A stretch of 64,000 nucleotides of DNA, from the IMG/VR virus record IMGVR_UViG_3300032116_000031, positions 32,001 through 96,000 of that record; one strand, written 5' to 3'. Made by a program: the position numbers and the translations under genes. The notes beneath the pieces were generated by a model. It was not told the DNA's origin. It saw nothing but the letters and a program-made list of their open reading frames with translations, and did not search any database. Each line of letters starts with the position of its first letter. The first letter of the stretch is position 1. Source of the stretch: a virus. This document shows positions 1 to 48,483 of the stretch, in pieces.

Positions 1-1811
1 ATTTCAACTGCTATATTTCCGTATAAAAATTCTTCACAACCGAATCCCATAACATTAGGGCAATTAACATCAGGCACATTCAATACATTCAAATTATAGG
101 GCGTTTCAGTTGCTATTCTAGCTGCATTAACAATAAAACCTGTTTGAGCTGAATTTTGAACTTCTAATTTTAATGGATTAATAGTGTTACCAATTAAATC
201 TACTAAAAAGTTATTAGTATAATCAATTGCTTTCCATTGGCTTGATACAGGTCTTGCACCGTTATCTACTATTTGGTAAAGTATTTTAAAACGGTGGAAG
301 CTAAAACCTAAACCATCATAACCTACTGCTTCTCTTTGACGCATATAGGGTAATAGCCCTGTTCTTTCCATATAGAATTCAACATCTTTATCTGAAGTTG
401 TTGTATTGACAAATTTCAGATATTGTTGTTGTGGTAATATATGTTGTACTACTGTATCTGCTTCCAACGTATATGTCATATACATTGTTTTTCCTTTAGG
501 TAGTATTCCTGTTCCAGAGGTGGACGGCGAAATCATTTTTCCCGCTAATTTTGGTAAGGTGAAATTACGATTTGCCTTATAACTCAAAGCCCCTAATAAA
601 TCAGGATTATGGATAACTACTATTTGAAGAGTGTTATATATTCTTCCAACAACCAAAGGTGTACCACTAGGCTGTATTAAAGTAGAATCTTCAACTAAAT
701 CATAGTACTCAATATTTGTATTTGCTACATACTTCTTAGTGGTATCTGCAACAAAAGTCATTCCCAAAACATTGCCTGTACCTGATCCTCCAGCAAAATA
801 CCTTCTATGCCACATTATATGTTGCAACTGTAATTTGAAATCGTTTGGTTCGGCAATATAAAAATGCTCACCATATAAATTAGTCTTATTGGTATTGCTA
901 TAATGTATAATACCTATGGACCTAATATAGTCATCATCAATCGCAAATAATTTATCTTCACAATTAGGGTTAGGGACTTCATCAGGGCAATCAACATTGA
1001 ACCCTAAATACTCTTTTTCGCCTATGTAATTGTAAGAGCAATACTCATTGAATTGCTGTTGCTCATCTTGAGTACCTATAACATTTTCACCCCAAATAAT
1101 ATTGAAATTCCAAACGTAAGTATCTTCATTTAAGCACTCCAACTTAAAATTCAAATTCTCGTAATCCCATAAAGTATTTACATTTGTCGATTTATAATAA
1201 TCTATATCTTTATCGTAAATGTAATATTCAATCAATAAATCATTATAATTCAAATAAGGTAAATTCCTATCTAATTCAATTATAGTAGAAGTAGGAGATT
1301 TGTAAATTTTAAAGAAAAGGTACAACACAGGTTGAGTAGTTGCAGATGGAGCAATGTATCCTGTTGTTGGATTAGCAATCTTAAACATAATAATATCACC
1401 ATCTTCAAAATCGGTGTTTTGAAGATCGATGAATTTAGTTCCATTTAATTGCTGTGAAAAAACATTACCTTGTTTCTTTACAAACTTGCTATCTAATTTA
1501 ATAGAGTAGTTTTTCGTTTCATCAAAAAAGCCTCTTTCTTTCGCAGGGTTATGAATACAACATTCCAACACTTTTACGCCGTCCAACACCTGAAACGGAT
1601 TACAATCTTCAGCTGTTAAGAATGTTTTCAAATTAGGATTCTTATCTTTGGGTTTCAAAACGAATTGAGAGCCAGTGTTGTTATAATCAACTTGACTATC
1701 ACCAAAAGAATAATATTTAAAATTCAAATTACCTTCAGCTATTTTTTGCCGTCCAACAGCGGTAATTTTTGATGAAATTAACGGTACGTTTATTTTATTT
1801 AAAAAGCTCAT
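1..1811 (-). CDS. Virion structural (baseplate/tail) protein, 3' end outside the window
   Basis: Not in the ORF track because it has no stop in the window. ATG at 1811 overlaps the stop of the upstream ORF (ATGA) and reads MSFLNKINVPLISSKITAVGRQKIAEGNLNFKYYSFGDSQVDY; the TxxGR...FGDxxVDY start is typical of phage tail/baseplate proteins. Confidence 0.6.
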   Translation of the reverse strand, partial: MSFLNKINVPLISSKITAVGRQKIAEGNLNFKYYSFGDSQVDYNNTGSQFVLKPKDKNPNLKTFLTAEDCNPFQVLDGVKVLECCIHNPAKERGFFDETKNYSIKLDSKFVKKQGNVFSQQLNGTKFIDLQNTDFEDGDIIMFKIANPTTGYIAPSATTQPVLYLFFKIYKSPTSTIIELDRNLPYLNYNDLLIEYYIYDKDIDYYKSTNVNTLWDYENLNFKLECLNEDTYVWNFNIIWGENVIGTQDEQQQFNEYCSYNYIGEKEYLGFNVDCPDEVPNPNCEDKLFAIDDDYIRSIGIIHYSNTNKTNLYGEHFYIAEPNDFKLQLQHIMWHRRYFAGGSGTGNVLGMTFVADTTKKYVANTNIEYYDLVEDSTLIQPSGTPLVVGRIYNTLQIVVIHNPDLLGALSYKANRNFTLPKLAGKMISPSTSGTGILPKGKTMYMTYTLEADTVVQHILPQQQYLKFVNTTTSDKDVEFYMERTGLLPYMRQREAVGYDGLGFSFHRFKILYQIVDNGARPVSSQWKAIDYTNNFLVDLIGNTINPLKLEVQNSAQTGFIVNAARIATETPYNLNVLNVPDVNCPNVMGFGCEEFLYGNIAVE

Positions 1812-4333
1812 ATGCAGGTTTCAAAATTTTGATTTGGGAAATCATATCTTTGTTTGTATTCGTTGGTAGTTTTATCATATTGTATCAATCTACCAGCCCC
1901 ATAATTGGATTCACTAAAGTTCGTTGGAACAGCAAAAGATTCAATTAAACAATCCCCGCTAACTTCCCTGTAAAACTGATCTATCTTGGATTCGTAAGGA
2001 ATAGGATTATTACAAGAATCCAAAGCTTTAGTTTCACAAGTTATAATTACTTCGTTGCTTTCATCTCCATAAGTAATCACATAATTCTTATATTGGAATT
2101 TCTGCTGGTGGAATAAGAAATTGCTATAAAACTTATGGTGATCTTTCCATATAACGGTTTCTGGTATGACTTGTTTAATTAAATCTAACCAAGAATTATT
2201 AATTTTAGAAAGAACCTTAAACATAAATTCATAATCCAACTCCTTGCTTTTAGCAGAGCAGAAATCAAAACTATTCAAATATAATTCATATAAATGACAA
2301 TAGTAATAATACGATTCACTAGTTAATAGATTCCTAACAGGAATAAATTCTTTTTCTATCTTATCCAGCGACATATCCTTGAAAATCTTATGGAACAAAT
2401 GCTCATATTTTTTCAAGAAAGCCACTACATCATTTTTAACATAGTTAGGTATATCAACTTTTAAAGTTAATTCCTTTGTATTTAGAATATCTTTGTTGGT
2501 ATCTAAATCATATGTTGCTTTAACATTATCTTCAAGTAATTCTAAATCAAAGCCGAAATTATAAGGTATTATTACACATTCACTCTTATCAGTAAAGCAA
2601 ACCTTAAACAACTTAATATCATCTAATAAAACCTTAGTCCCTCCAAAACCGAAGCCAGCCAAGAACATACCTAATTTAACTTCGGTATTCAATAGATTAG
2701 CAGGAACTCTAATGTTAGCAGTGCGCCAACTAATATCAAAGTTATCATTAATATCATCAGGGCAAGCTTCGCCTAATTCAACCCTTATTAACTCTTTTAA
2801 GTTATAACAATCTTCAGTGGTACCAGATAATTCAAAATATAATTTATCTGTTCTGGGGTTAATATCTAACTCTAACTGTCTGTAATTTTCAGTATTGTTT
2901 TTAATTTGACTGTATAAAGTTAAATTATCCAATATAGATAAAATAGTTGCATCTGTTTTATTATTAAAATAATCAATAATGTCACCGCAGCTTAATATTA
3001 ATCTATACTTAAATTCAAAATAATAATCACACGTTGTGCTACCACTATTCAAGAAGAAGAAATCTTCTACACCGTTTAAATTGAATGTGAAATCAGCTTC
3101 ACTACATTCACATGATCCATCGTCAACAACTGCATCAGGATTATAATTATCAGCCAAGGGATTAGTACATCCAGTTATAAAAATACAAGACCCATCGTTA
3201 AAATTGGCGTTCGGATTATAGTTACTTGCAAATGGATTAGTGCAACCAGCGATGGGCACAAATACAGGTGGGTATTGGCAACTACCATCATCAATAACGG
3301 CAATTGGATTATAATTTAAACTATTTGGATCGGTACAACCTGATATTATTGGATATACACAAGAGCCATCGTCTATTGTTGCACAGGGATTATAATTTAA
3401 ACTAATTGGGTCAGTACAGCCATATATATCACCACCCTCTAGTACATAAACACTTTGACATACCTCATTGGTAATTTCACCGTCTATATCGTATTCATAA
3501 GCACATCTAAGATCTTCAAAAAATACTTGTCGCTCGTAGGTGCAACTACCGCTTGCTAATTGTATAACAAATTTACCTTTATAATTTACATAAAAGGAGG
3601 GGCTAATGAATTCTACCTCTAAATTGTTAGTTTGATTAGTAGGATTATTAATAGGTAGTACGGTGACTTCATTATCTATATTAGTTAATTCAACATAACC
3701 TCCGATAGGGTATATGTTATTTGCTGCTATATTTATCTCAATTTGTGATAAAACAGGTCTAAGAACACCCGCAATATAATTGGCTTCTCGTAAAACCCTT
3801 AACTCTACTGTTTGACACTCGCAATTACAAGAACCATCATCTTGTGTTGCTTCAGGATTATAATTAGGTGCAAAGGGATTAGTACATCCTAATACAGGAG
3901 GTCTATCAGTTTCTTCGAGAATAAATTCATTATAACAAATCTCCGATATAGAAGGCTCTTCTCCTTCCCCATTTGGAAAACTTATATAATCACAAGGTAA
4001 TTCATTGGTATCGTTTAAGTTAATTGTTTTCTCGTAATAACAAGTACCACCATTTAATTCTAATATTACTTTAACTGTATTATCAGTAAAAAAAGCCTCG
4101 TCATCTAATTCAAACGTAGCAAAGGTAGTTGAATTAGTTGGATTATAAATGGGTATTATTGTTATATTTTGAGATGGGTCCCCTAACTCCAAATAACCTG
4201 TTATAGGAGTTGTGGAAGTACCACTAAAAACGCTAATCGATAATTCAGAGTTATAATTGTAAACGGGGTTAATACCGCCTCCATTATTATCGAATTGTTT
4301 TAATACATCTATTTTTATCGTTGGACAAGACAT
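1808..4333 (-). CDS. Cys-rich putative virion/adhesin-like protein with five GCTxPxxxNYNPxAxxDDGSC repeats
   Basis: 841-aa ORF in the structural operon; five repeats and a duplicated N-terminal domain are visible in the translation. Confidence 0.6.
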   Translation of the reverse strand: MSCPTIKIDVLKQFDNNGGGINPVYNYNSELSISVFSGTSTTPITGYLELGDPSQNITIIPIYNPTNSTTFATFELDDEAFFTDNTVKVILELNGGTCYYEKTINLNDTNELPCDYISFPNGEGEEPSISEICYNEFILEETDRPPVLGCTNPFAPNYNPEATQDDGSCNCECQTVELRVLREANYIAGVLRPVLSQIEINIAANNIYPIGGYVELTNIDNEVTVLPINNPTNQTNNLEVEFISPSFYVNYKGKFVIQLASGSCTYERQVFFEDLRCAYEYDIDGEITNEVCQSVYVLEGGDIYGCTDPISLNYNPCATIDDGSCVYPIISGCTDPNSLNYNPIAVIDDGSCQYPPVFVPIAGCTNPFASNYNPNANFNDGSCIFITGCTNPLADNYNPDAVVDDGSCECSEADFTFNLNGVEDFFFLNSGSTTCDYYFEFKYRLILSCGDIIDYFNNKTDATILSILDNLTLYSQIKNNTENYRQLELDINPRTDKLYFELSGTTEDCYNLKELIRVELGEACPDDINDNFDISWRTANIRVPANLLNTEVKLGMFLAGFGFGGTKVLLDDIKLFKVCFTDKSECVIIPYNFGFDLELLEDNVKATYDLDTNKDILNTKELTLKVDIPNYVKNDVVAFLKKYEHLFHKIFKDMSLDKIEKEFIPVRNLLTSESYYYYCHLYELYLNSFDFCSAKSKELDYEFMFKVLSKINNSWLDLIKQVIPETVIWKDHHKFYSNFLFHQQKFQYKNYVITYGDESNEVIITCETKALDSCNNPIPYESKIDQFYREVSGDCLIESFAVPTNFSESNYGAGRLIQYDKTTNEYKQRYDFPNQNFETCI

Positions 4334-6924
4334 TATGTTAAAATATTACTATAAGAATCAGGTACGTTCACTTGTGTGCAATTTACTCTTAAACTATAAT
4401 TATCAGTGTATTCACATCCGTTAGATAATGTAATCACTATATCAATATCTAAATCAATAAAGTTTAGTCTAGGTGTGAAATCCACGTAAACTGCTTTTAC
4501 TCCATTTTCATTATTGAATATTTCTGTTATCACATTTCCAATCAACACGCCTGTTCCACCTGATCCTTTAGTTATGGTCATAACAACTGTATCAACGGTC
4601 GCATCAAAAGGTACGTTATCTAACGAATATGTAACGTTAATTCTTGTATTCGATACATCTAAATTAGAAACACATTCACCCGTAGAGTCTAATTGTATGA
4701 AGTCACATTCAACAGGTGTTTCATTGCATTCTATTAAGCGCGTTATTATGCCGCTGGTACATCCAAGTGCATCTATAACTTCAACAGCAATAGTTTCACC
4801 ATTCGGTAATAAATCGCCGTTCTCATTACCATTAACAATATAAGGAGCCGTACCACCACTATAAGATAATAATACAGTTGCATCCCCAGTAAGATTGCCA
4901 TTTAGATCGTAGTTACAAACATAACTTAATGAAACAATGATAGGATTATTAACACATTCAGGTATATAACAATAAGTTGTTCCAGTTAAAGTTAATGATT
5001 CACAGCCTATACTGTCTTCAATGTAAACAGAATAAGGTTGATTTACTGGAAATATATCACCATCATTAGCACCATGGAATATATACGGAGGAATTCCACC
5101 ATACCCTTTAACATTAAGTTTTATTTCATCTGGACCTATACATTCTTGCCAAACATCAATTATAGGTCCTGTACATCCAGAATAAAGTATTTTGGGTTCT
5201 AAGTGTATTTGTAGGGCTTGATCGTTATTTTCTATTTCACAACCGCACTCATCAAACAATGTTTCTTTAAGAACATCATCTACAACACCGCTTTGGGAAA
5301 AGTAACAAGAATCTGGTGCCAAATAGTAATCAAATGTGGTGCCTGATCCTTCAAATCCGTATTCATATAATGATGTTTGAGTGATTTCTCTATTTGTTAT
5401 TGTTTTATATTTACCGTTCAAATTCTCGTCTAAGACATAGAATTGTGACCAATAATCAGAATCTTCAAATATGTAATTAGACCTGTATTTAGGATAGCCA
5501 TCTTCATCAACTGAAATATTCAATAGTTCATCGTTACCGTAAATAATATTAAGATACTGTTTGAGCAGCGTAACATCTATTGGACCGCTAATTTTCTTAA
5601 TATGTTCCTTAAAGTTAATTAACTCTTTTGGGATATTAAAGAAATCAAAAATAAACTCTACTGCTGCTCTTGTTCCTTTCGATTTAACTAACCAAGTGAG
5701 AACTAAACCTAATTCCTTCTTCTTTTCTAATGGTAGGGTTTGATTTATTTTTATACCATGGGATGAAATATAATAATCCAATAATTCTATTGGCATATTA
5801 TCTTCACCATCATAGGTTAATATATTAATATTTTTTAGGCTGTTAACAAACTTATATTGTTCATCGAATCCAAAAGCATAAACTGATAACAGTACTTCTA
5901 ATTTATCCCCTTGATTTTCTGTACTTTCAAAGTTTTCTAATATAGGTAGAAATAGGTTTGGTTCTACATATTTTCTAAGAACAAGGTTTGTTTCATATTC
6001 ATCTTGTTTTTTAGCGTAATTTATTAGAATTTCTTTGAATGTATCAAATTTAAAGGTGCTAAGGTCTACATTATATTTATCTGTTTTTGGGAATATAATT
6101 GTTAGGTTATATTCCAGTATATAATTTCTATCAGTTAATTTACTATCCTTAAAGTCTATATAGAAACCATCTTCTTTTTCATTTCTCATTAATATAGAAA
6201 CGAATAGAGGAGAATTATCTGTGTATTGGGTTTTTATGGTGGTGGACGGCGAAATGTAGGATATTTTACTATGGTTGCCTATCTCAAAGGGCTTACCTTC
6301 AACTTCAATAGACATGAAGCTGTTTTTAAATTTAGGAGCCCCTTGGAAATTGGTAATCCTATATTTTTCGCCGTCCACCTCAAACTCATAATCCCCAAAC
6401 CAATCTTTTAAATTCCTGTACTTAGAAAATTTCTCTCTATTGTTTAAATCAATATTAAGATAATTAATATCTAAGGGATTATATAAGAAATTAGTATTAA
6501 CTACAAAACTACTCCTATTTGTTATAGGATTGTAAGAAACATTCAATATGTTAAAACCGCTGGTACCATTAACATTATCCTCAATGATAATAGCAGCAGG
6601 GTAATTATAATAAATGTAATCTAAAGCTTGTAAGAAGTTTTTTTCAACTGAACTATATTTTATAAAGCTGGTTAAATCCTTTTTGTTGACTTGAAGGGTA
6701 ACATTCTTAAAAGCTTCATTAGTAGTGGATGGAAGTACAGCTACATTCTGAACATCGGCTAACGTATAACTTATAACGTTTTGAAATACATTATAAGAAT
6801 TCGTAATCTTAGTAGAATTCAAATTAGACGTAACACTGAAATCGCCCGCTTGTACCAGATAAGTTATAAAGGGCGTTGCAGTGTTTGTTTTGTGTTCATT
6901 GTAGGGAATATAGATATACTTCAT
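4333..6924 (-). CDS. Putative baseplate/tail protein with C-terminal SprB-like repeats
   Basis: 863 aa; KSKGTRAAVEFIF resembles the phage tail/baseplate (P2 gpI-like) KGT motif; two GGxxPY...DxxGC repeats near the C-terminus. Confidence 0.55.
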   Translation of the reverse strand: MKYIYIPYNEHKTNTATPFITYLVQAGDFSVTSNLNSTKITNSYNVFQNVISYTLADVQNVAVLPSTTNEAFKNVTLQVNKKDLTSFIKYSSVEKNFLQALDYIYYNYPAAIIIEDNVNGTSGFNILNVSYNPITNRSSFVVNTNFLYNPLDINYLNIDLNNREKFSKYRNLKDWFGDYEFEVDGEKYRITNFQGAPKFKNSFMSIEVEGKPFEIGNHSKISYISPSTTIKTQYTDNSPLFVSILMRNEKEDGFYIDFKDSKLTDRNYILEYNLTIIFPKTDKYNVDLSTFKFDTFKEILINYAKKQDEYETNLVLRKYVEPNLFLPILENFESTENQGDKLEVLLSVYAFGFDEQYKFVNSLKNINILTYDGEDNMPIELLDYYISSHGIKINQTLPLEKKKELGLVLTWLVKSKGTRAAVEFIFDFFNIPKELINFKEHIKKISGPIDVTLLKQYLNIIYGNDELLNISVDEDGYPKYRSNYIFEDSDYWSQFYVLDENLNGKYKTITNREITQTSLYEYGFEGSGTTFDYYLAPDSCYFSQSGVVDDVLKETLFDECGCEIENNDQALQIHLEPKILYSGCTGPIIDVWQECIGPDEIKLNVKGYGGIPPYIFHGANDGDIFPVNQPYSVYIEDSIGCESLTLTGTTYCYIPECVNNPIIVSLSYVCNYDLNGNLTGDATVLLSYSGGTAPYIVNGNENGDLLPNGETIAVEVIDALGCTSGIITRLIECNETPVECDFIQLDSTGECVSNLDVSNTRINVTYSLDNVPFDATVDTVVMTITKGSGGTGVLIGNVITEIFNNENGVKAVYVDFTPRLNFIDLDIDIVITLSNGCEYTDNYSLRVNCTQVNVPDSYSNILT

Positions 6925-40191: not shown

Positions 40192-40707
40192 ATGAGAAAA
40201 CCTACACCAGAATACTTAGAAAGAAGTATTAAATTTGTGGATAATGAAGTGCAATTATCGAAATATCTGAAAGTAAAAGACTTTATTAAATCCGAAACAG
40301 CAACAGCACGTAAAATAGATAATAGGCTTCCTGAAAGCCTACTTGAAAACGCTAAGAAAATAGCGGCAATGTATGATGCAATCTATGACAGGTTTAACGG
40401 TAATATCAGTTTAAATTCTGGCTATAGATCCCCAAGACTAAACACTGCTGTTCGTGGATCATCAACTTCCCAACATGTATTCGCATTAGCTATTGATGTT
40501 AGAGGTAAAAATGGCGTTAAAAATGCAGATATATTGAATTGGGTTAGGAGCAATATGAAATATCAACAGCTAATATGGGAATACGGTACAAGTAAAGAAC
40601 CTAAATGGGTTCATATAGGACATGGTACCAAAATGCAATTTTTGAGAATTGGAGTAGCTACAACAAGAGGCTTGGGGTTGCATTTATCCGATGCTGGAGA
40701 TATTTAA
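40192..40707 (+). CDS. Peptidase M15A family endolysin
   Basis: SGYRS..LN..V.GS..SQH...AID...WVHI zinc-ligand motifs. Confidence 0.88.
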   Translation: MRKPTPEYLERSIKFVDNEVQLSKYLKVKDFIKSETATARKIDNRLPESLLENAKKIAAMYDAIYDRFNGNISLNSGYRSPRLNTAVRGSSTSQHVFALAIDVRGKNGVKNADILNWVRSNMKYQQLIWEYGTSKEPKWVHIGHGTKMQFLRIGVATTRGLGLHLSDAGDI

Positions 40708-41081
40708 AGCTTAAGATTCAAAATATCTTTAACTAAAAAAGCGCCATTGTTATAACTATATAAAACATCTAATGATACAGTGTGATCCTGATATTCAACA
40801 TTAACCGAGTCTATGTTAATACCTTGCATATTGGATTGCACTGTACCTATTATTTCTGATTTTATCATATCAATTGTTTGAGTATCGGCTGGTTCAAACA
40901 AATATTCTACGAGGTTACATCCGAAATCAGGTTTGTATAATCTGTTACCTTTTTTTGTTAATAAAAGATGTATTAAGTTTGATTTAACTTGTTCCTTTGT
41001 TGACTTTGTCAAGTCAAAATAGAAGCCATTATTGCTATTTTTAAAAGGGAATCTGATTCCCAAGAATTTAGTTATACTCAT
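40704..41081 (-). CDS. Baseplate wedge protein, gp25/GPW-like
   Basis: GIRFPF...VKSNLIHLLLTKKGNR..PDFGCNL..YLFEP; the ATG at 41081 is preferred to the track start at 41123. Confidence 0.88.
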   Translation of the reverse strand: MSITKFLGIRFPFKNSNNGFYFDLTKSTKEQVKSNLIHLLLTKKGNRLYKPDFGCNLVEYLFEPADTQTIDMIKSEIIGTVQSNMQGINIDSVNVEYQDHTVSLDVLYSYNNGAFLVKDILNLKL

Positions 41082-41137
41082 TTTTATTTTTTTTTGATTT
41101 TTATAATATATATATAAGTCCAACGTCTGATTTATAT

Positions 41138-41755
41138 ATGGCTAATTATGTTATTGATAATCTTATGATTATATTCTCCGCGCTTTTTTCTGGCGGCGCA
41201 GGTGTTAAAATAGTGGAATATTACTTAAAAACATTAAATAAAGCAAAAGCAGAAGACTTTTTTAATGATACAAAAGAAGTAATAGATATTATAACACAAC
41301 TATCAGAAAACCCCATTATAGATAATGTTTTAATATTTAGAGGCGGCAATGGTGGTTCTGTACCCAGAGTTGGAAAAGATTATTATCTTAAATGTATATT
41401 TGAAGCACATAAAGAAGAGCCTGAAATATCTTCTTTAAAGCTCTATGAAAATATAATCCCAGATTCTAATTATATCACTATTCTTTTAACTTTGATGCAA
41501 AATAAAATGATGAATTTCAATATATCAACTATGGAAGATGGTTTATTGAAAAAAATATATTTAGCCGAAGGATTAAAATATTCCAAAATATTCACTTTAC
41601 ATCAAACAAAAGAATTTATTTTCTATATACAAATATCAACCACACAAAAAAACAATCTTGAAGATGATGTTATATTAAGATTAGAAATGGAATCTAAAAT
41701 CTTTAAATTAAGACAAATCTTCAAGAAACACTATGAAGACGGTTTTTTTAATTAA
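41138..41755 (+). CDS. Single-TM protein with soluble C-terminal domain, possibly holin T-like
   Basis: N-terminal hydrophobic helix; close to the endolysin; function inferred. Confidence 0.4.
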   Translation: MANYVIDNLMIIFSALFSGGAGVKIVEYYLKTLNKAKAEDFFNDTKEVIDIITQLSENPIIDNVLIFRGGNGGSVPRVGKDYYLKCIFEAHKEEPEISSLKLYENIIPDSNYITILLTLMQNKMMNFNISTMEDGLLKKIYLAEGLKYSKIFTLHQTKEFIFYIQISTTQKNNLEDDVILRLEMESKIFKLRQIFKKHYEDGFFN

Positions 41756-42209
41756 AAAGACCTTTAATCTGTTCTTTTGCTTTCTTTCTTAATAGATCCA
41801 AACCCCAATGTAATTTTGATGAAGGGAATTTAAAAAACTCTTCAACGGTCATCCATTTATAATCTGAAACTTCTATCTCATAATCTACCGTTTGAACATT
41901 AACAAGTGGGATAAATTCTTCATAGACAATTCCTATAAAATTGTAGTAATCCATTTCACCTGTTGTATTAACAAATGAAGGGATTATTTTTATTGGTACA
42001 ATCTTACCTGTTTCTTCGTAGAATTCTCTTATAGCAGTTTCATAAGGTGTTTCATAGTTATTAGCCTTACCTCCAAAGTCGCACCATTTATTAGGCTCCT
42101 TCTCTAATTTAGGTCCTCTTTTACCCAAAAGAATTCTACCTGTGCTCAAACACACAGGTAGAACTCCAGCAGCATATTTTTTATTTTCGATTTTTATTTT
42201 TTCAATCAT
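41748..42209 (-). CDS. NUDIX hydrolase
   Basis: GGKANNYETPYETAIREFYEETG Nudix box. Confidence 0.92.
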   Translation of the reverse strand: MIEKIKIENKKYAAGVLPVCLSTGRILLGKRGPKLEKEPNKWCDFGGKANNYETPYETAIREFYEETGKIVPIKIIPSFVNTTGEMDYYNFIGIVYEEFIPLVNVQTVDYEIEVSDYKWMTVEEFFKFPSSKLHWGLDLLRKKAKEQIKGLFN

Positions 42210-42576
42210 ATAACATTGGTTCTAAAATTCTAGTGTTTTTCATTTTTAACAAAAAAGAACATTTTTCATATTCTTCTCTTGTTTCAAAATATTTTATCAG
42301 TCTTTCAATTAATATAGGTTCTACATTTTCATCTATATTTAATCTGTGATAAGTAACATAATAAAATAGTTCGATGTTATCAGGAATAGGTAAGCTACCA
42401 TTTAGATTGAAGTAATCTATGGCTTCAATGTCTTGAATGCTATTAAAGCCTTCCTGTTGTAAATTGGTGTAAATAGAAAAAGCAGCCTCGTCCGCATCAT
42501 CGACGCTAGCTGCTTTTATTGATCCACCGTAAAAACTGCCCTCCTTTGTCTTAATTGACAATACATAGTTGCTCAT
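42202..42576 (-). CDS. Hypothetical protein with UVR-like C-terminal motif
   Basis: YFETREEYEKCSFL. Confidence 0.5.
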   Translation of the reverse strand: MSNYVLSIKTKEGSFYGGSIKAASVDDADEAAFSIYTNLQQEGFNSIQDIEAIDYFNLNGSLPIPDNIELFYYVTYHRLNIDENVEPILIERLIKYFETREEYEKCSFLLKMKNTRILEPMLYD

Positions 42577-42638
42577 ATGTACTTCCCATTTTATATAAAT
42601 ATAAATATTAAGTTAGGAAAACAGCATTACTATTTTTT

Positions 42639-43814
42639 TTATCCGTCACAAGACAAGCAAGATAGATCAGTTGCTTTGGCTGCTATATCTCCTCTTAATA
42701 CTGATTCTGTTCTCATGTAATAAAGAGTTTTTACACCTTGCCTCCAAGCTTCTAGGTGGACGGCGTTAATGAATTTTGGATCCGCTTGTGCAGGAAATGC
42801 TAAATTCAATGACACCGCTTGATCTATATATTGTTGTCTTACTCCAGCTTGTTTAACTAAGTCCAATTGATTAATTTCCTTGAAAGTTTTAAACACATCT
42901 TTAACTGTATATGCTTTTGTTTCAAAATCCTCCTTAGAAATTTCAGAAACCTTTGTTAATTTGCCATCGAGATAACACCATTCATCTAAGAAATCTAATC
43001 CCTGAACTGAACCAGCATCTTGTAATATTTGGTCCCAAACTTGCTTAGTGTTATAACCAATATGATCCAAAACCTTTTCTAATTCATTGTTCTTTCTAAT
43101 AAACGTTCCTTTTAAGGATTGTTCGGTAAACAAATTAGAAGCCCACGGTTCAATTCCAGCACTAACGTTTCCGCTTAGCTTAGAATTAGAAACTGTTGGT
43201 GCAATAGCTCTAAGATGGGTATTTCTATAACCACTCTCTTTACACCATAATGGTTCTCCATATTCTGTTGCTAAATCTCTACTTGCCTTTTCTGATTCAA
43301 TTTTTAATTGGGAGAATATTTTACGGGTTTCAAATTGTGCCCTCAATCCCTCAAAAGGTAATCCTCTTTGTTGGAGGTAGGTATGCCAACCTAAAGTATT
43401 ATGTATAACGTATTTAACACCATTATTTGAACTAGTAAAATAATTATGATGTTCATCTACTGTTAAATCCGAATATTCAATATCAATATTTTCAGGTTGC
43501 CAAATTTCAACAATGGTGTTTAAATTATTATCTTGACTAACCATTACATTACCAACACTTAATTCATCTGCTCTAACATAATCAAGTGAACCATCTTTCA
43601 TTATAGTTAAGGTTGGATGCCATAATGAAGTATAAATAATACTACCACAATCTAATTTAATTGCTATCTGATCTTTAACTTCAACAATGGGTTTATGTGT
43701 TTCTAATATTTCCCTATAACATTTTTTTCTTTTATTTATGTCATAAGATAACACAAAATCACCGCATTTAGCATTTTCAATTGCTATTTCTTTTTTATTT
43801 ATTTTTATATTCAT
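42639..43814 (-). CDS. nrdA: Split-intein C-fragment fused to the C-terminal part of ribonucleotide reductase alpha
   Basis: 139-aa intein part ending VIHN, then TLGWHTYLQ...APTVSNS...QAVSLN...KTLYY...CLSCDG. Confidence 0.92.
   Translation of the reverse strand: MNIKINKKEIAIENAKCGDFVLSYDINKRKKCYREILETHKPIVEVKDQIAIKLDCGSIIYTSLWHPTLTIMKDGSLDYVRADELSVGNVMVSQDNNLNTIVEIWQPENIDIEYSDLTVDEHHNYFTSSNNGVKYVIHNTLGWHTYLQQRGLPFEGLRAQFETRKIFSQLKIESEKASRDLATEYGEPLWCKESGYRNTHLRAIAPTVSNSKLSGNVSAGIEPWASNLFTEQSLKGTFIRKNNELEKVLDHIGYNTKQVWDQILQDAGSVQGLDFLDEWCYLDGKLTKVSEISKEDFETKAYTVKDVFKTFKEINQLDLVKQAGVRQQYIDQAVSLNLAFPAQADPKFINAVHLEAWRQGVKTLYYMRTESVLRGDIAAKATDLSCLSCDG
43398..43814 (-). mobile_element. Split intein IntC (139 aa)
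   Basis: IENAKCGDFV (end of block A), TSLWHP (block B), ADEL.VG, YSDLTVDEHHNYF (block F), IHN|T (block G). Confidence 0.88.
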
Positions 43815-43816
43815 AA

Positions 43817-44851
43817 TTAATTTTTATTTTTTTTTGAGAAATTACCTTTTAACCATCCTTTTTCTAAAAAGGAATTTAATTCTTCTTTTTCTATAAATTT
43901 TATTTCAACGCCATTATTAATACAAATTCTTCCTTTATTACTCGTTTTTTTAGATAAACACCCTAATACCCACCCTTTTTCTAAATACTCTTTTGTATTT
44001 TCTTTAGGTATGTATTTGTTTACTAATCCATTATTTATACCAATAGATCCTTTTTCAATGGTCCCTTTTATTGTATCTGTTGACCAACCGTTGTTTAAAT
44101 GATCTTTTATTTCTGCTTCATCTATCAACTTTGTTTTACCATCTTTTATTACTTTCTTTTTATTTTTTATAGATTTTTCTTTCAATTTTTTCTTTAATTG
44201 ATTATTAAAACCTATAAACCATCCATCCATTAAATAATACTCTAAGTCTTTTTTATCAATATATTTATGTTTTCCATCTTTATTAATACAGATATGACCG
44301 ACTTCTATTGAACCTTTATTTGTTTTTTTACGGATAGTTATACCTTTAAACCATCCTTCAGGTAACTCCGCGTCTAATTTAATAAATTTGTTATTAATAC
44401 CATTTGTAATACAAACAGTATTGTTAGTAGTGCCTTTAGTTTTTACCCATCCTTTTTTTTCTAAAAGTTGTTTTAAGTGTTTTGGAAAAAATCTTGTTTT
44501 ACCAGTTTTAGGGTTAACTAATTTAATCATGTCTTTTGCATTAAAATGTTTATTACCAAATTGATTATAACAAACATTTACACATCTTTTCCTACCATAT
44601 CTTTCGAAAGCTTTTTTTATTAAATTTGATTCATAATCATTAATAATCTTTCTATCAAAAGATAAATCGAATGAATTTATTATAATCCTATTCCATTTAC
44701 AATTATCGAATTCCATTTCATAAGAGAGGTATTTAGAAGAACTTACATATTTATCATCTAAATACCCCTTATGTGAACCAATATATATAAACGGTAAATC
44801 AGTATTATAATATCTATCAGATGAATACCATATATAAATAAATTGCTTCAT
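43817..44851 (-). mobile_element. Free-standing GIY-YIG (Seg-like) homing endonuclease between the nrdA halves
   Basis: FIYIWY...IYIGSHKG...Y.SSS catalytic domain plus about six C-terminal xxNG..K.I......YL..GW..G repeats. Confidence 0.8.
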
Positions 44852-44862
44852 TTCAACTTGAA

Positions 44863-45003
44863 TTAATCTATTTCTATTGTTTTTATCAGTGTAGATACTT
44901 TTATTTTTTCTCCGTTTAATTCAATGAAATCTTCAAGATTATAATTAATTCCATCAATTTCAACTGAATCTATCACTTCAATTTTAGATCCTTTTGATAC
45001 ACA
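44863..45003 (-). mobile_element. Split intein IntN (46 aa)
   Basis: Begins CVSKGSKIEV immediately after the extein GRALGLG (TGT at 45003-45001). Confidence 0.82.
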
Positions 45004-46026
45004 ACCTAGACCCAAAGCGCGGCCCTTCTCGGCTGATCTAACAGCGTTCTCAAAGCCTTTCATATTCTTTGCTTTCTGAATAAACTCTTCCAGTACGCCG
45101 TCCAAGAACCAAGTAGCTGTATAAATTAAATCAGTGTCTTTCCATTCATCATATTTTGCCAAATTAAGAGAACTTAGGCAACACACAAAAGAATGTTGTT
45201 CATCGGTATGTAAAGCAATCTCTGAACAAATATTTGTCATGTGTACCTTCAACCCATTCTTTTTATACATTTCAGGATTACTTTTATTAACATTACCCTT
45301 AAACATAATATAAGGCTCACCTGTTGCTTTTCTCTTTTGTAACAATTTACCCCACTTCCTTCTTGCCTCTACGTCACCTTCTTCTAATTTACGCATAAAG
45401 CTGTCGCTAATGACGGCGCATTGATGTAAATTCAAAGACTGTCTATTAACATCTCCTTTTGGTTCTCTAATTTCCAACCATTCCTCAAAATCTGGGTGAT
45501 CAATTTTGATGTTAACAGAAGCAGCACCTCTTCTAACAGCACCTTGATTCGTAGCTAAAATAGTAGAATCATAAATCTTACAAAATGGTACAACGCCATC
45601 TGAAGTGCCATTGTTGGTAATTTTAGCACCAGCAGGTCTAATCATATTGATACCAATACCTACACCCCCACCATGTTTAGCTAGCATCATTAATTCAAGG
45701 TTCTTTGAACCTATCTCGTAGATACTATCGCCTACATCAATACCAAAACAACTGATAGGTAAACCTCTATCTGTACCAGTGTTAGCTAATACAGGTGTCG
45801 CTAAGTTTAACCAACCTCTCCAAATATAATCGAAGAATTTAGTTGCTAAATGTGGTTTGTTCAAACGTTTGGCAACAGTTGTAGATACGCGCCAATAAGC
45901 GTCTTTTGGTTTTTCACCTTGTAGAAGGTATTCTTTAGAAATGGTTTTTACATAGACTTCGGTATTACCCCATTCAGGGAAGTCAACTCCAACTTCCCAA
46001 CCGAACTCTGCTCCATGATTTATCAT
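44863..46026 (-). CDS. nrdA: Ribonucleotide reductase alpha N-terminal part fused to IntN
   Basis: ATPVLAN, PISCF, GGGVG, QGAVRRGA, GEPY, TNICSEI, CCLSSLN, RALGLG. Confidence 0.93.
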   Translation of the reverse strand: MINHGAEFGWEVGVDFPEWGNTEVYVKTISKEYLLQGEKPKDAYWRVSTTVAKRLNKPHLATKFFDYIWRGWLNLATPVLANTGTDRGLPISCFGIDVGDSIYEIGSKNLELMMLAKHGGGVGIGINMIRPAGAKITNNGTSDGVVPFCKIYDSTILATNQGAVRRGAASVNIKIDHPDFEEWLEIREPKGDVNRQSLNLHQCAVISDSFMRKLEEGDVEARRKWGKLLQKRKATGEPYIMFKGNVNKSNPEMYKKNGLKVHMTNICSEIALHTDEQHSFVCCLSSLNLAKYDEWKDTDLIYTATWFLDGVLEEFIQKAKNMKGFENAVRSAEKGRALGLGCVSKGSKIEVIDSVEIDGINYNLEDFIELNGEKIKVSTLIKTIEID

Positions 46027-46089
46027 ATTAAAATATATTTTTAGTAAAAATAATTAGTACAGTTAAAAATTAACGATGAAAAAAATTTA

Positions 46090-47088
46090 TTACCATAATC
46101 CACTATCCCAATCTTCACCTTCATTTGCCTTACTATAATCAGTAGGTCTTACAGCAAAGAAATCAGTGTGGGTCAATCCACCAGTGAGATGATAAAACCA
46201 ATCTAATTCTGATGCCTTTTCTTCGTTATATTGGAATTGTGCTTTATATCCTAATTCAATCAATTTTTCATTTGTTCTTTTAATAATAAAATGTTTTAAA
46301 TCTTCCTTTTTCAAATTATCTAAATCCCCTTGCTCAAACATTTTATCAATAAAACTATGTTCCAATTTAATAATTAAATCAGCGGCTTCAAAAATAGATT
46401 GTTGAGCTGCATCTTTCAATTCGGGAAATTCTTCACACATATGTTTAAACAATTGGCACCCCATTTTTGAATGCAAAGATTCATCACGAACACTCCATTT
46501 CATTTGCTGCCCGATACCTTTTAACATATTTCTCATTTGGAATGAATATAGAACTGCAAATGAAGAATATAAAGCAACACCTTCAGCAAAAGCAGAGAAA
46601 ATGGCTAAGCTACGCCCAACTTCAACTCTTGCTTGTGGATTATTAATTATATCATTAGGTGAATAATCAGCACTAACTTCTGTTAACATTTCAAATCTGG
46701 CTTTTGTAGCAGGCTCGTGTAAAAAAGCTTCAAAATCTTCAAGACCTAAAGTTTCATTTAGATATGAATAAGCAACGGCGTGAATAGTTTCCTGTGAACC
46801 AAAAGCCATAGCCATCTGCCTAATTTCATGTTTTGGAAACCATTTTGTTACCATTCCAGTCCAATAATCAGATACGGCACATTCAGTTTGAGCGAAACCT
46901 AAAAGAATATTTCCTACCAAATGCTTCTCATGGCTTTTTAATTTCTCGTTCCAATCTTTTATATCACTTTGCATTGGAATTTCAGTATGTAACCAAAAGG
47001 CTTGCATTTGTTTTAGCCAACCTTCATTATAATATTCTGGATATTCGAATGGCTTATAAGGAACTCTTTCTGTGAATAGTTTACTCAT
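46090..47088 (-). CDS. nrdB: Ribonucleotide reductase class I beta subunit
   Basis: ETIHAVAY, EGVALYSSF, RDESLH, DFFA..PTDY. Confidence 0.95.
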   Translation of the reverse strand: MSKLFTERVPYKPFEYPEYYNEGWLKQMQAFWLHTEIPMQSDIKDWNEKLKSHEKHLVGNILLGFAQTECAVSDYWTGMVTKWFPKHEIRQMAMAFGSQETIHAVAYSYLNETLGLEDFEAFLHEPATKARFEMLTEVSADYSPNDIINNPQARVEVGRSLAIFSAFAEGVALYSSFAVLYSFQMRNMLKGIGQQMKWSVRDESLHSKMGCQLFKHMCEEFPELKDAAQQSIFEAADLIIKLEHSFIDKMFEQGDLDNLKKEDLKHFIIKRTNEKLIELGYKAQFQYNEEKASELDWFYHLTGGLTHTDFFAVRPTDYSKANEGEDWDSGLW

Positions 47089-47097
47089 AGTATGTAT

Positions 47098-48483
47098 TTA
47101 ATTTTTATTTTTTTTGTTAGCTTCTAATGAACTTGTTATATTAAAGTCTTCTATTTTAATTTTGACCTTAGCATTATTAAATATGCAATTTTCAAATTTC
47201 AATCGACCCTGACCTAAGCGATTTTTCCAAAAGTTTACATTGGCTAATGCTGATATTTCTTGCTCTTCATCTTTACCAACGGTGATCAATACGTGAGCTA
47301 TCTTTAAAAGGTCAACGGAGCCACCTAACATCGTCGGTAAGACATCTTTCATACCATGTGAATCCTTTTTACCTTGAATCAAAACCCACGCAGCACAATT
47401 GAATTTTTCCTCGCTTATTGAATGTTCTATTTGTCTTAAAACCTCTGGACCAGCCATAAAATCTCTTTCACCATAATCCTTTTCACTTTTAATACAATCT
47501 AAATAGTCAATAATAATCAAATCCAATTTATGCCCTAATACTTTCTCGATGTAAAACATTGTTTGTTCAATATCACTCCATTTTGTATTAATAGCATCAA
47601 ACTTTTTAACAATTAATCTACCACCTGCTTTCTCCCCTTTCTTCAGATATTTTTTGCATTCTAATTCTACAAGTTCTTTGTTTTTATTTTTTCTAGTTTC
47701 ATTGATTTCCAATCCAGTCCAATGTGCTTGGAATTTAGAAATCAATTGATCTTGAGCACCTTCAAAATAAACGTACAATACTGTCTTACCTTGATTGAAT
47801 GCTGCACTAGAAGTAACAACAGAGAAAGTAGTCTTACCAACGCCGTAACCAGCCCCTAGAACGCATAAATCGCCTCTTGAAGGCCCACCACTTAAAGCAC
47901 TATCGAAAGACACTCCTAGGCCAGTTGAGATAGGAATTCGGTTCATATCATCAACTGTTTTAAATGTTTCGCTATCGAAGATTAACGGTCTTTTTTCTAA
48001 GTCATTAATCTCAATAGATTTTCTCACTTTATCAACAGCATCTTCAAAGGATTTGATTTTATTCTCCTTCAATCCTTTTCTAATAGAATCTACTGATGTG
48101 AAGAAGTTTTGTTGTTGAACAAAGTTTTTAGCGTTGTTCCTGATATGATCTACGTTTTCAATAACTACGTTTTCAATATCATCTAAGAACTGAAAAAAGA
48201 TTTCTTTATCTTCTTTACTCTGTGAGGAGTATATTTCCCTAATCGTATCGTAGAAAGGAATACTACGGTATTTTTCGTAATATTCCTTCACGATAGATAA
48301 AAGAAACTTTGAAGATGGAAGAAAGAAGTGATTGCTTTTTAGAATAGGTAAAATTGTAAGACCAAAATCAACATCTCTGTAAATTTCCTTTCCTTTAAGG
48401 ATTCGCCGTCCAATCACCTGATTCCAAAATTTAATCTCAAACCGTTCACCAAAAAATGAAAGGTTTTCGTTCATTGTATCCAT
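47098..48483 (-). CDS. dnaB: DnaB-like replicative helicase
   Basis: GAGYGVGKT Walker A, YFE, IIDYLD, KNRLG. Confidence 0.88.
   Translation of the reverse strand: MDTMNENLSFFGERFEIKFWNQVIGRRILKGKEIYRDVDFGLTILPILKSNHFFLPSSKFLLSIVKEYYEKYRSIPFYDTIREIYSSQSKEDKEIFFQFLDDIENVVIENVDHIRNNAKNFVQQQNFFTSVDSIRKGLKENKIKSFEDAVDKVRKSIEINDLEKRPLIFDSETFKTVDDMNRIPISTGLGVSFDSALSGGPSRGDLCVLGAGYGVGKTTFSVVTSSAAFNQGKTVLYVYFEGAQDQLISKFQAHWTGLEINETRKNKNKELVELECKKYLKKGEKAGGRLIVKKFDAINTKWSDIEQTMFYIEKVLGHKLDLIIIDYLDCIKSEKDYGERDFMAGPEVLRQIEHSISEEKFNCAAWVLIQGKKDSHGMKDVLPTMLGGSVDLLKIAHVLITVGKDEEQEISALANVNFWKNRLGQGRLKFENCIFNNAKVKIKIEDFNITSSLEANKKNKN

Follow-up and report, generated by a model that had tools for sequence, protein, structure and literature searches.

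Fractured genes carrying split inteins were described from marine metagenomes (Dassa et al. 2009, PMC2677866), the named pairs including NrdA-1 to NrdA-7, NrdJ-1/2, gp41-1 and others, and that account took the DnaE split intein as the template for modelling them. As for natural inteins with an atypical split and a short IntN, a handful are named, with IntN pieces of 15 to 37 aa (PMC13014065). As described, VidaL (16-aa IntN) and PolB16 OarG (15 aa) are split at the S1 position, and AceL-TerL (25-aa IntN) and GOS-TerL (37 aa) are S2 (PMC13014065, PMC10189870, PMC11766414).

The locus analyzed here, in a class Id-like NrdA, is a new example of this layout, which is known but has seldom been described. 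It lies in a 64,000-nucleotide stretch of viral DNA (the window), and we consider it highly likely to be a fractured nrdA that is rejoined by an atypically split intein around a free-standing gene for a GIY-YIG-fold endonuclease, with full-length NrdA very probably stitched together after translation. The core of this reading (a fractured nrdA, a short IntN and long IntC, a Cys1/Thr+1 pair and an endonuclease gene) had been proposed in a first-pass annotation, and it has been strengthened by the fold of the pieces, a modelled complex, conserved residues, recurrence, selection and empty sites.

Anatomy of the nrdA locus

Three minus-strand ORFs encode, in order, NrdA-N with IntN, the endonuclease, and IntC with NrdA-C. 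The features are as follows, slashes here and below marking junctions between extein and intein.

46090..47088, minus strand: nrdB (small subunit), directly upstream, operon context (Pfam Ribonuc_red_sm, E 6.6e-57)
45004..46026, minus strand: nrdA N-extein, residues 1-341, ending GRALGLG (Pfam Ribonuc_red_lgN and lgC; NF006577 positions 30-363)
44866..45003, minus strand: IntN, 46 aa (CVSKGSKIEV...TIEID), stop codon at 44863-44865 (ORF and homologue comparison)
44852..44862, minus strand: spacer, 11 nt, from IntN stop to endonuclease start (ORF ends)
43817..44851, minus strand: free-standing homing-endonuclease gene, 344 aa (structure model and homologues)
43398..43814, minus strand: IntC, 139 aa (MNIKINKKEIAIEN...KYVIHN) (PT-HINT match, structure model, Hint-fold matches)
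42639..43397, minus strand: nrdA C-extein, 252 aa plus stop, from Thr+1 (TLGWHTYLQ) (Pfam lgC 374-523; NF006577 from position 362; PDB 6dqw, E 8.5e-59)

The first ORF (44863-46026, minus strand; 387 aa) passes from the 341 aa of NrdA-N into the 46-aa IntN at GRALGLG/CVSKGSKIEV... and then stops. An 11-nt gap (44852-44862) separates it from the 344-aa endonuclease ORF (43817-44851, minus strand), and a 2-nt gap (43815-43816) precedes the third ORF (42639-43814, minus strand; 391 aa), whose 139 aa of IntC and 252 aa of NrdA-C read MNIKINKKEIAIENAKCGDFV...TSLWHP...DLTVDEHHNYF...VIHN/TLGWHTYLQ. The ORFs, gaps and junctions first annotated are thus all present. As the endonuclease gene is bounded by a start and a stop of its own, nrdA is made as two polypeptides.

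The N-extein contains the all-alpha domain and the beginning of the barrel, together with the NICSE thiyl-radical motif, while the C-extein contains the YY pair and the C-terminal CLSC. The catalytic NxCxE therefore lies in one gene, and the YY pair and CxxC in the other, as had been noted. Against the NF006577 profile the N part stops at position 363 and the C part begins at 362, so that the halves abut exactly. They also abut in intact relatives, namely, GLG-V-LGWHSF in Flavobacterium phage immuto, to whose NrdA the N-extein is 64% identical, and GLG-T-LGWHTYLQ in Cellulophaga phage phi14:2. The junction in the rejoined GRALGLG-T-LGWHTYLQ predicted at the outset is exact in both the profile and the intact homologues. 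The alpha subunit shows class Id features, being short, with NxCxE, a YY pair and a C-terminal Cys pair, and Pfam gives no ATP cone match in NrdA. Its best PDB matches are 6dqw (8.5e-59) and 6dqx, ribonucleotide reductase (RNR) alpha chains of 585 and 574 aa, which we take to be the class Id enzymes of Flavobacterium johnsoniae and Actinobacillus ureae. The intein's host is a class Id-like NrdA without an ATP cone, from a Flavobacteriia-type phage.

The exteins have a G+C content of ~0.33 to 0.39, against 0.23 to 0.26 for the inserted element. The endonuclease start codon lies inside a weak hairpin (fold of 44830-44920, -9.6 kcal/mol; z -2.36; matched by 1 of 200 shuffles), and at the IntC start the RNA fold is no better than shuffles (z 0.43). 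No terminator-like sites were found between the genes from 42639 to 46026, and promoter-like sites, at 25 compared with 30.8 in shuffles, are below chance and give no regulatory conclusion. Contigs from RNA libraries cover IntC and the endonuclease, which is not proof of transcription.

Hint fold, split position and modelled pairing of the halves

Residues 10-133 of IntC match positions 9-132 of the 137 in Pfam PT-HINT (E 3.2e-8; 34.4 bits, cut-off 27.7), the only profile passed. The Hint part fell below the cut-off of Pfam Intein_splicing (21.9 versus 35.8 bits), so the expected intein/Hint profile match was obtained with the first family and not with the second. Modelled alone, IntC folds as a Hint domain (pLDDT 88.6, pTM 0.79), and 58 PDB chains matched this model in Foldseek at E<=0.001, with inteins, bacterial intein-like (BIL) domains or Hedgehog in the top ranks. 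The top match is 2lwy (TM 0.71/0.75), and BIL, CDC21-1, gp41-1, RadA and DnaB inteins are included (E 3e-7 to 1e-4; TM 0.6 to 0.75). The Hint fold, without which the first-pass reading would have fallen, is thus found by profile, model and fold comparison.

IntC holds helix alpha1, block B (TSLWHP, residues 62-67), block F (DLTVDEHHNYF) and block G (HN), and an alignment of 22 IntC-first proteins has S63, H66, P67, D116, H138 and N139 invariant. IntN comprises Cys1, strands beta1-beta2 and an extension of ~30 aa. Two other, diverged phage contigs, L008 and L009, have the identical split at the identical nrdA site. The first 41 aa of IntN are conserved in L008, and Cys1 directly follows the N-extein (GLG/C) in all three loci. 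A class 1 intein motif set is present: Cys1, S-x-x-H, the block F Asp, His-Asn and Thr+1. Block B has Ser at a position where Thr is usual. As a separate observation, the nearest solved fold to IntC is a bacterial intein-like domain and not a canonical intein.

As blocks B, F, and G and PT-HINT positions 9-132 all fall within IntC, the split is N proximal. The model and an alignment to contiguous relatives place it after strand beta2 and before helix alpha1, at the S1 position. The initial likening to AceL-TerL and GOS-TerL is therefore corrected, as those are split after alpha1 (S2), and the fitting parallels are VidaL and PolB16. The window's IntN of 46 aa, like those of L009 (45 aa) and L008 (41 aa plus a relic), exceeds the published natural range of 15 to 37 aa (PMC13014065), because of the ~30-aa extension after beta2, which some contiguous relatives also have. 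The acidic IntN tail and basic IntC start once proposed hold in part: the first 40 residues of IntC have a net charge of +3, but in IntN the acidity lies in residues 11-30 (net -5), and the final 20 residues have a net charge of only -1. A word-based homologue search with residues 330-387, the IntN region, returned nothing among proteins of 212 to 678 aa, a result of little weight for a 58-aa query.

When IntC 1-146 was modelled with N-fragment 335-387, the halves docked, as had been anticipated, with ipSAE values of 0.86, 0.86 and 0.85 compared to 0.00 for the best of three controls, although split inteins have already been solved and the score may reflect likeness to them or memory. In the tool's calibration, 51 of 78 solved complexes attained the ipSAE pass mark, as did 2 of 108 mismatched pairs. 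Across the runs the partner pLDDT was at least 82 and contacts agreed to at least 92%. The modelled interface involves IntC residues 60-67 (block B), 112-117 (block F) and 137-140 (HN and Thr+1), touched by residues 339-359 and 378-387 of the first ORF.

Such a model shows association, not chemistry, and would also fit Hint pieces that serve as mere association domains with no peptide bond formed. The mobE-split NrdA of phage Aeh1 is described as a precedent for such non-covalent assembly (PMC3045599, PMC2677866), and the split here lies in a loop after GLG that could perhaps tolerate a nick. We nevertheless judge this reading improbable. Residues needed only for the chemistry are all kept, with Cys1 in 3/3 loci and S-x-x-H, the block F Asp and His-Asn invariant in the 22 proteins; Thr+1 tracks the intein; and an unspliced Hint domain of 185 aa would stay in the middle of the barrel.

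Protein trans-splicing, the favored reading, would use Thr at position +1, the least common and often the slowest +1 nucleophile. All three intein-bearing loci (window, L008 and L009) have Thr+1, whereas in 79 intein-free loci the residue is Val (63), Ala (14) or Leu (2) and never Thr, and two empty metagenome alleles (the first two joints given below, decoded by hand) have Val. The early suggestion that Thr replaces Val agrees with these close relatives. The intact NrdA of phi14:2 also has Thr, however, which means that this residue is not confined to genes bearing an intein.

Recurrence, selection and proposed mobility

The IntC of L008 is 80% identical to that of the window, and its endonuclease has decayed to a relic that is fused to IntN and read in frame with it, the relic's stop overlapping the IntC start. 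L009 has its IntN, a homologous endonuclease of 353 aa and IntC. In none of the three loci is a frame disrupted. Between the window and L008, pN/pS is 0.178/0.674 for IntN, 0.135/0.606 for IntC and 0.169/0.789 for the C-extein, with synonymous sites near saturation, which makes dN/dS values rough. As judged from these substitutions, both intein pieces appear to be under purifying selection and as constrained as the enzyme.

This bears on whether nrdA was destroyed by endonuclease invasion, its pieces decaying while the phage relies on the host reductase. The nrdA of some Campylobacter phages has been argued to be degenerating under intein load (PMC3653736), and one relative of the window's intein sits in such a phage. 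For the locus described here, gene death is very improbable: exteins and intein pieces together show pN of 0.08 to 0.18 versus pS of 0.6 to 0.8, the frames are intact in all three loci, the arrangement outlasted endonuclease decay in L008, and the adjoining nrdB is intact.

Alternatively, the gene could be mended no later than translation: with the endonuclease ORF excised as an intron or skipped, a contiguous intein would be made and would splice in cis. Phage RNR genes often contain group I introns, and one is present elsewhere in the L008 nrdA. At this site, though, no Rfam family matches window positions 42400-46300 at E<=1, the ORFs leave just 11 and 2 nt between them, the L008 relic is in frame with IntN and ends over the IntC start, and a Met start occupies the same IntC position in 33 related proteins. 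We therefore give mending almost no credence and retain the rejoining of two polypeptides after translation.

The exact empty site is found in 79 of 81 loci (L008-L088). In addition, contigs from three public DNA metagenome runs join 43379 to 45023, 43388 to 45008, and 43398 to 45017, with 37, 13, and 12 replacing letters, respectively. Each is a net 1606 nt shorter, exactly the length of 43398-45003. Run X4 also yields a contig spanning 43326-45046 with zero differences from the window, so filled and empty alleles occur in one run. The presence/absence alleles are precise and have diverged flanks. A further joint, 43833 to 44249 (run X9), was not counted, having only 22 letters on one side and lying between repeated endonuclease modules, and stretches left uncovered in runs X12 and X18 carry no weight here.

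The endonuclease model has a GIY-YIG-fold nuclease domain in residues 1 to ~100, followed by about five beta-beta-alpha modules of the type ICINNG..NK.I...EL..YL..GW..G. In a full VIA-align scan, residues 2-99 align with the I-TevI catalytic domain (1ln0_A; Z 8.2, in the tool's "middling" range; rmsd 2.8; 82/92 aligned), with further GIY-YIG nuclease matches in T4 EndoII (Z 5.0), the UvrC N-domain (Z 4.0) and Eco29kI (Z 3.7). Foldseek with the whole 344-aa model returned nothing at E<=0.001, with I-TevI at rank 22. Y23, G25, H27, R67, E74 and N100 are invariant in seven homologues, the Arg being off its usual distance after YIG. The protein is 33% identical to gp138 of Chryseobacterium phage MA9V-2, which is annotated as a GIY-YIG nuclease and adjoins an intact nrdA. 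The GIY-YIG label first given is thus backed by fold and homologue annotation, and not by profiles: Pfam, PHROG and NCBIfam give no nuclease family for this ORF (E<=0.1 or E<=0.01). A search of viral contigs with the endonuclease alignment found a single distant relative, L007, which is a canonical GIY-YIG gene located away from nrdA and has one C-terminal module in common with the query.

We propose that the 1606 nt form a composite selfish element inserted in the class Id-like nrdA between Gly341 and the next residue, an intein coding sequence carrying a free-standing GIY-YIG-fold endonuclease gene at its N-proximal (S1) position. The two products would be NrdA(1-341)-IntN(46 aa) and IntC(139 aa)-NrdA(342-593). 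The beta1-beta2 hairpin of IntN may insert into IntC, whose Hint domain is nearly complete, and this would bring Cys1 beside the block B His, the block F Asp and the terminal His-Asn. Class 1 trans-splicing would then proceed by an N-S acyl shift at Cys1, transesterification to Thr+1, Asn139 cyclization and an O-N shift, yielding full-length NrdA (593 aa) with ...GLG-T-LGWH... at the joint. The endonuclease is predicted, on the indirect evidence of the presence/absence alleles and of the gp138 homologue beside an intact nrdA, to cut intein-free nrdA alleles, whereupon the whole element would be copied along with the Val-to-Thr change at +1. An essential phage enzyme would in this way depend on post-translational stitching.

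The wider intein family and described systems

Among other cluster representatives related to IntC, 33 of 110 open with a long IntC of this kind, and between them they occupy at least five different RNR sites. The split had been called rare, which is true in print and not in metagenomes. At the S1 point, the contiguous members P0018 and P0020 (and, by eye, P0022) have an in-frame HNH domain, and the split members (window and L009) have the free-standing endonuclease gene. We lean slightly toward placing the window's intein in a large RNR-specific Hint subfamily with endonuclease insertion at the S1 loop and not at the canonical B-F site. We did not find this subfamily in print, nor a paper that joins an atypically split intein with ribonucleotide reductase or names the GLG/T site, though a listing in a supplement is possible. 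If the subfamily is real, endonuclease invasion at S1 would explain the origin of atypically split inteins, and dozens of natural, possibly orthogonal, short-IntN ligation pairs would exist. Short-IntN split inteins are sought for protein ligation and labelling, and to these the locus contributes a Cys1/Thr+1 pair whose host protein and insertion site are both new. The whole life history of the element can still be followed, as a full endonuclease (window and L009), a relic (L008), contiguous cousins with HNH at the same point and exact empty sites in the same metagenomes, stages that give a concrete account of why the split sits where it does.

Like the mobE-split NrdA of Aeh1, the locus is a phage nrdA cut by a free-standing homing-endonuclease gene within one operon. 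The Aeh1 fragments, as described, lack an intein and assemble non-covalently via short tails, whereas those of the window have the full Hint motif set (PMC3045599, PMC2677866). A contiguous NrdA intein of 169 aa is 32% identical to IntC over residues 18-139 and also has an extension after block A, an S-x-x-H block B and an HN end. It differs in lying at another NrdA site (GRGG/C...HN/SSN), in being contiguous and in having no endonuclease gene.

The window shows the marks of the fractured genes of Dassa et al.: two same-strand ORFs, exteins contiguous in intact homologues and an endonuclease ORF between them. As in the loci described there, an essential DNA-metabolism gene is divided over two ORFs of one strand, the first closing with one intein half and the second opening with the other, and a free-standing endonuclease gene, of the GIY-YIG or another type, separates them, with its stop near or overlapping the IntC start and a hairpin at its own start (PMC2677866). 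The published NrdA loci are described as cut directly N-terminal to the thiyl-radical Cys (PMC2677866), while the window is cut ~66 residues later, at GLG/T. Their hosts are given as cyanophage-like NrdA, compared with the class Id-like NrdA of a Flavobacteriia-type phage here. The window's halves of 46 aa (IntN) and 139 aa (IntC) set it further apart. The marine pairs are reportedly split canonically, with a long IntN and a short IntC.

In the VidaL, PolB16 and TerL inteins, as in the window, IntN has only the block A region and IntC is a near-complete Hint domain with blocks B, F and G. With VidaL and PolB16 it shares a split that precedes alpha1 (S1), and with VidaL and AceL-TerL it shares Cys1 as the first nucleophile. 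Going by the published descriptions, it is set apart from these inteins by its host, an RNR alpha subunit in place of TerL, UvsX-type or PolB proteins, and by its insertion site, its 46-aa IntN, its Thr+1 and an endonuclease gene that is still in place.

A fractured nrdA gene and its recurrence

In the window, nrdA follows a helicase-like gene and nrdB on the minus strand and occupies a run of three close-set ORFs, confirming the fracture reported in the first-pass annotation:

44863-46026, minus strand: ORF 1, NrdA-N plus IntN, 387 aa
43817-44851, minus strand: ORF 2, putative endonuclease gene, 344 aa
42639-43814, minus strand: ORF 3, IntC plus NrdA-C, 391 aa

The gaps are 11 nt (ORF 1/ORF 2) and 2 nt (ORF 2/ORF 3). 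ORF 1 encodes NrdA residues 1-341, comprising the all-alpha domain, the start of the barrel and NICSE, followed after GRALGLG by the 46 Cys-initial residues of IntN, the N-terminal intein piece. ORF 3 opens with the 139 residues of IntC, ending in VIHN, and continues from TLGWHTYLQ through the YY pair to a C-terminal CLSC. The flanking NrdA parts, or exteins, are contiguous: against NCBIfam NF006577, the ORF 1 fragment ends at profile position 363 and ORF 3 resumes at 362, and the intact NrdA proteins of Flavobacterium phage immuto (64% identical) and Cellulophaga phage phi14:2 read uninterrupted through GLG-V-LGWH and GLG-T-LGWHTYLQ, respectively. G+C content is 0.33-0.39 in the exteins versus 0.23-0.26 across the insert. 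The nearest solved relatives of the window NrdA are the RNR alpha chains 6dqw (585 aa, E = 8.5e-59) and 6dqx (574 aa), which we take to be class Id enzymes, lacking an ATP cone, from Flavobacterium johnsoniae and Actinobacillus ureae.

A stretch of ~27 residues, DEWCYLDGKLTKVSEISKEDFETKAYT (C-extein residues 277-303; 42903-42983, minus strand), has no counterpart in 6dqw or 6dqx and is present, in diverged form, in L008, a second phage contig. The source IMG/VR virus record is 136,214 bp long (CheckV completeness, 41%), and the window is its bases 32001-96000. The neighbor genes at 47098-48483 (minus strand) and 40192-42576 include a putative DnaB-type helicase, and the immuto gene order helicase, nrdB, nrdA agrees with that of the window. 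By eye, a candidate peptidase-M15-like lysin, gp25-like baseplate protein and Nudix hydrolase are also seen nearby.

The same split is found at the same site in two other viral contigs, L008 and L009. In L008, IntC is 80% identical to that of the window, and the endonuclease is a ~60-aa relic of the DNA-binding part, fused in frame to IntN and overlapping the start of IntC. In L009, a 45-aa IntN and a homologous endonuclease of 353 aa accompany an IntC with 47% identity to the window's (tblastn). As all three loci share it, the split is older than the divergence of these phages and has outlasted endonuclease decay. Non-synonymous/synonymous differences between the window and L008 are 0.178/0.674 for IntN, 0.135/0.606 for IntC, 0.169/0.789 for the C-extein and 0.082/0.791 for the first extein exon, ratios that are rough because synonymous sites are close to saturation. 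On these alignments, constraint on the intein pieces appears equal to that on the enzyme; that nrdA is simply a dead gene is very improbable. Repair of the message at the RNA level has next to no standing, since no Rfam model matches the nrdA region at E≤1.

L008 nrdA also carries an ORF-less group I intron (4202-4429, plus strand; matched by the whole of Rfam model RF00028 at 108.6 bits, E = 3e-29) between NICS and the E of the thiyl-radical motif, which is absent from the window; a group I intron and a split intein thus occur in one gene. The L009 NrdA-N fragment (1611-3926, plus strand; 771 aa) has near its start, by eye, a candidate second, contiguous intein with LAGLIDADG-like motifs (ISC|LTGDTWV...VVHN|CFGV).

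The intein pieces and the position of the split

Profile searches bear out the Hint/intein assignment through Pfam PT-HINT, positions 9-132 of 137 being matched over cut-off by IntC residues 10-133 (E = 3.2e-8); Pfam Intein_splicing matches IntC under its cut-off only. IntC contains block B (TSLWHP), block F (DLTVDEHHNYF) and block G (HN), and residues S63, H66, P67, D116, H138 and N139 are unvarying among 22 aligned sequences. A structure model of 146 residues, for which 22 relatives were aligned as input, reached a pLDDT of 88.6 and a pTM of 0.79. In Foldseek it matched 58 PDB chains at a threshold of E≤0.001; the top rows are inteins, bacterial intein-like domains or Hedgehog, with 2lwy as the best match (TM, 0.71/0.75).

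The two pieces are also predicted to pair, as the first-pass annotation had supposed. Complex prediction gave ipSAE values of 0.86, 0.86 and 0.85, whereas the best-scoring of three controls had 0.00, with partner pLDDT of at least 82 and contact agreement between runs of at least 92%; in calibration, the mark was reached by 51 of the 78 complexes with known structures and by 2 of the 108 mismatched pairs. In the modeled complex, IntC residues 6-12 and 20-22 pair with IntN residues 6-13, and the N-junction region contacts IntC 60-67, 112-117 and 137-140. Because split inteins already have solved structures, the score measures likeness to these and may stem from the predictor's memory of them. 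By these models, IntN and IntC are two parts of one Hint domain.

The split was placed by aligning IntN and IntC as separate rows with seven contiguous relatives. IntN consists of block A (beta1-beta2, CVSKGSKIEV) and a ~30-residue extension, of a type present in some contiguous mini-inteins, such as intein 1 of Campylobacter phage IBB35 NrdA. IntC begins with the strand preceding helix alpha1, the helix being at IntC residues 12-14 in the model. In the nomenclature of PMC13014065, this is the S1 position, before helix alpha1.

A HMMER search with IntC against 1.84 billion representatives found 111 proteins at E≤0.001, the window's own included. Local realignment of the other 110 places a long IntC at the start in 33 and the match internally in 76, with one unclear; nearly all of the 33 are Met-initial, of the sequence type M-x-IK-x-x-TKK. 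Pfam scans of 14 family proteins showed RNR barrel exteins in 12, the remaining two being too short to reveal one. C-junctions occupy several positions in RNR: GLG|T (proteins P0012 and P0013), DQLG|..HN|T/S-R-K/P-G, RGG|..HN|S-A/S-T and ..HN|SQGG. In P0018 and P0020, Pfam identifies an HNH_3 domain, in frame, after block A and ahead of the first strand of IntC type, which is the S1 place, and in P0022 an HNH is seen there by eye. We lean slightly toward S1 being the endonuclease insertion point in this subfamily, with the atypical split as a consequence, a reading drawn from few sequences. P0018, P0020 and P0022 are RNR alpha proteins with more than one intein, 1271-1517 aa long; in the first two, Pfam finds one intein whose N-proximal site holds the HNH_3 domain and another that has a LAGLIDADG domain.

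The middle gene and empty sites

The 344-aa middle ORF matches no nuclease family model in Pfam, PHROGs or NCBIfam, and a database search gave nine relatives only; Y23, G25, H27, R67, E74 and N100 are unvarying in an alignment with the six closest. Its model has a mean pLDDT of 69, rising to ~85 over residues 1-95. Foldseek returned no significant match, and a full VIA-align scan ranked the I-TevI catalytic domain first (Z 8.2, rmsd 2.8 Å, 82/92 aligned), with T4 EndoII (Z 5.0), the UvrC GIY-YIG domain (4.0) and Eco29kI (3.7) within the first seven rows. The best phage homologue, from Chryseobacterium phage MA9V-2, aligns at 33% identity across 98% of the length; it carries a GIY-YIG nuclease annotation and is a free-standing gene immediately 5' of an intact nrdA. 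From fold and context, we accept the earlier GIY-YIG designation and regard the product as a putative GIY-YIG-fold homing endonuclease.

The C-terminal two-thirds (residues ~98-344; 43817-44560, minus strand) comprise about five beta-beta-alpha modules of 40-45 aa with the consensus ICINNG..NK.I...EL..YL..GW..G. Their only matches are PHROGs of unknown function and one annotated "HNH endonuclease", of which they match the tail, and such modules also close a canonical GIY-YIG gene in a distant endonuclease-relative locus, L007. They likely form a modular DNA-binding array that no Pfam family covers.

Among 81 related IMG/VR loci (L008-L088), the insert is absent from 79, where the first C-extein residue (+1) is Val in 63, Ala in 14, Leu in 2 and Thr in none; all three intein-bearing loci have Thr. 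The proposal that Thr replaces Val thus agrees with these loci, but intact phi14:2 NrdA (KC821624, 3968-5695) has Thr as well, unlike all 79, and this may be a trace left by a past intein or a site pre-adapted for one.

Part of the stretch is contained in 20 rows of public sequencing runs from 14 studies, and contigs of four runs (X4, X9, X12 and X18) were compared with the window. One X4 contig spans 43326-45046 with zero differences, representing the intein-bearing allele with both junctions. Empty-site contigs in X4, X9 and X12 have joints 43379>45023, 43388>45008 and 43398>45017, with 37, 13 and 12 replacing letters, and each has a net loss of 1606 nt, exactly 43398-45003, the span from IntN to IntC. 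Hand decoding gives ...GRSLGIG-V-LGWAT... for the first joint and ...LG-V-LGW... for the second, indicating precise empty sites with Val+1 and diverged flanks in close relatives from the same samples, the pattern that a homing element with co-conversion should leave. An X9 contig skips 415 nt within the endonuclease gene (43833-44249), one side having only 22 letters; either it represents a deletion variant or the assembly slipped between repeats. Contigs from X18, an RNA library, cover 43341-43563 and 43558-44300 with zero differences, which is compatible with co-transcription, short of proof.

Probable trans-splicing and known split inteins

The Hint fold, complex model, recurrence, selection and empty sites together support the view that an atypically split intein rejoins the fractured nrdA. 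The mechanism is very probably class 1 protein trans-splicing, in which Cys1, Thr+1 and Asn cyclization would restore a 593-aa NrdA; non-covalent assembly of the NrdA halves is an improbable alternative.

A set of fractured NrdA loci is reportedly split in the canonical manner. The window nrdA shares its layout with the "fractured genes" described by Dassa et al. 2009 (PMC2677866), whose seven NrdA loci are cut immediately before the thiyl-radical Cys. The natural N-proximally split inteins named in PMC13014065, PMC10189870 and PMC11766414 are at TerL, PolB and VidaL loci. A literature search, covering papers without their supplements, found none naming an N-proximally split RNR intein or a GLG|T site. 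According to PMC13014065, VidaL and PolB16 share the S1 split, whereas AceL-TerL and GOS-TerL, to which the first-pass annotation had likened the window intein, are split after helix alpha1 (S2), a position other than that of the window intein. The IntN pieces listed there are 15-37 aa long, shorter than the 46 aa in the window. The fractured-gene layout and N-proximally split inteins are known, and the instance in this NrdA is new; the locus shows together the element with its endonuclease, a relic form (L008) and empty sites.
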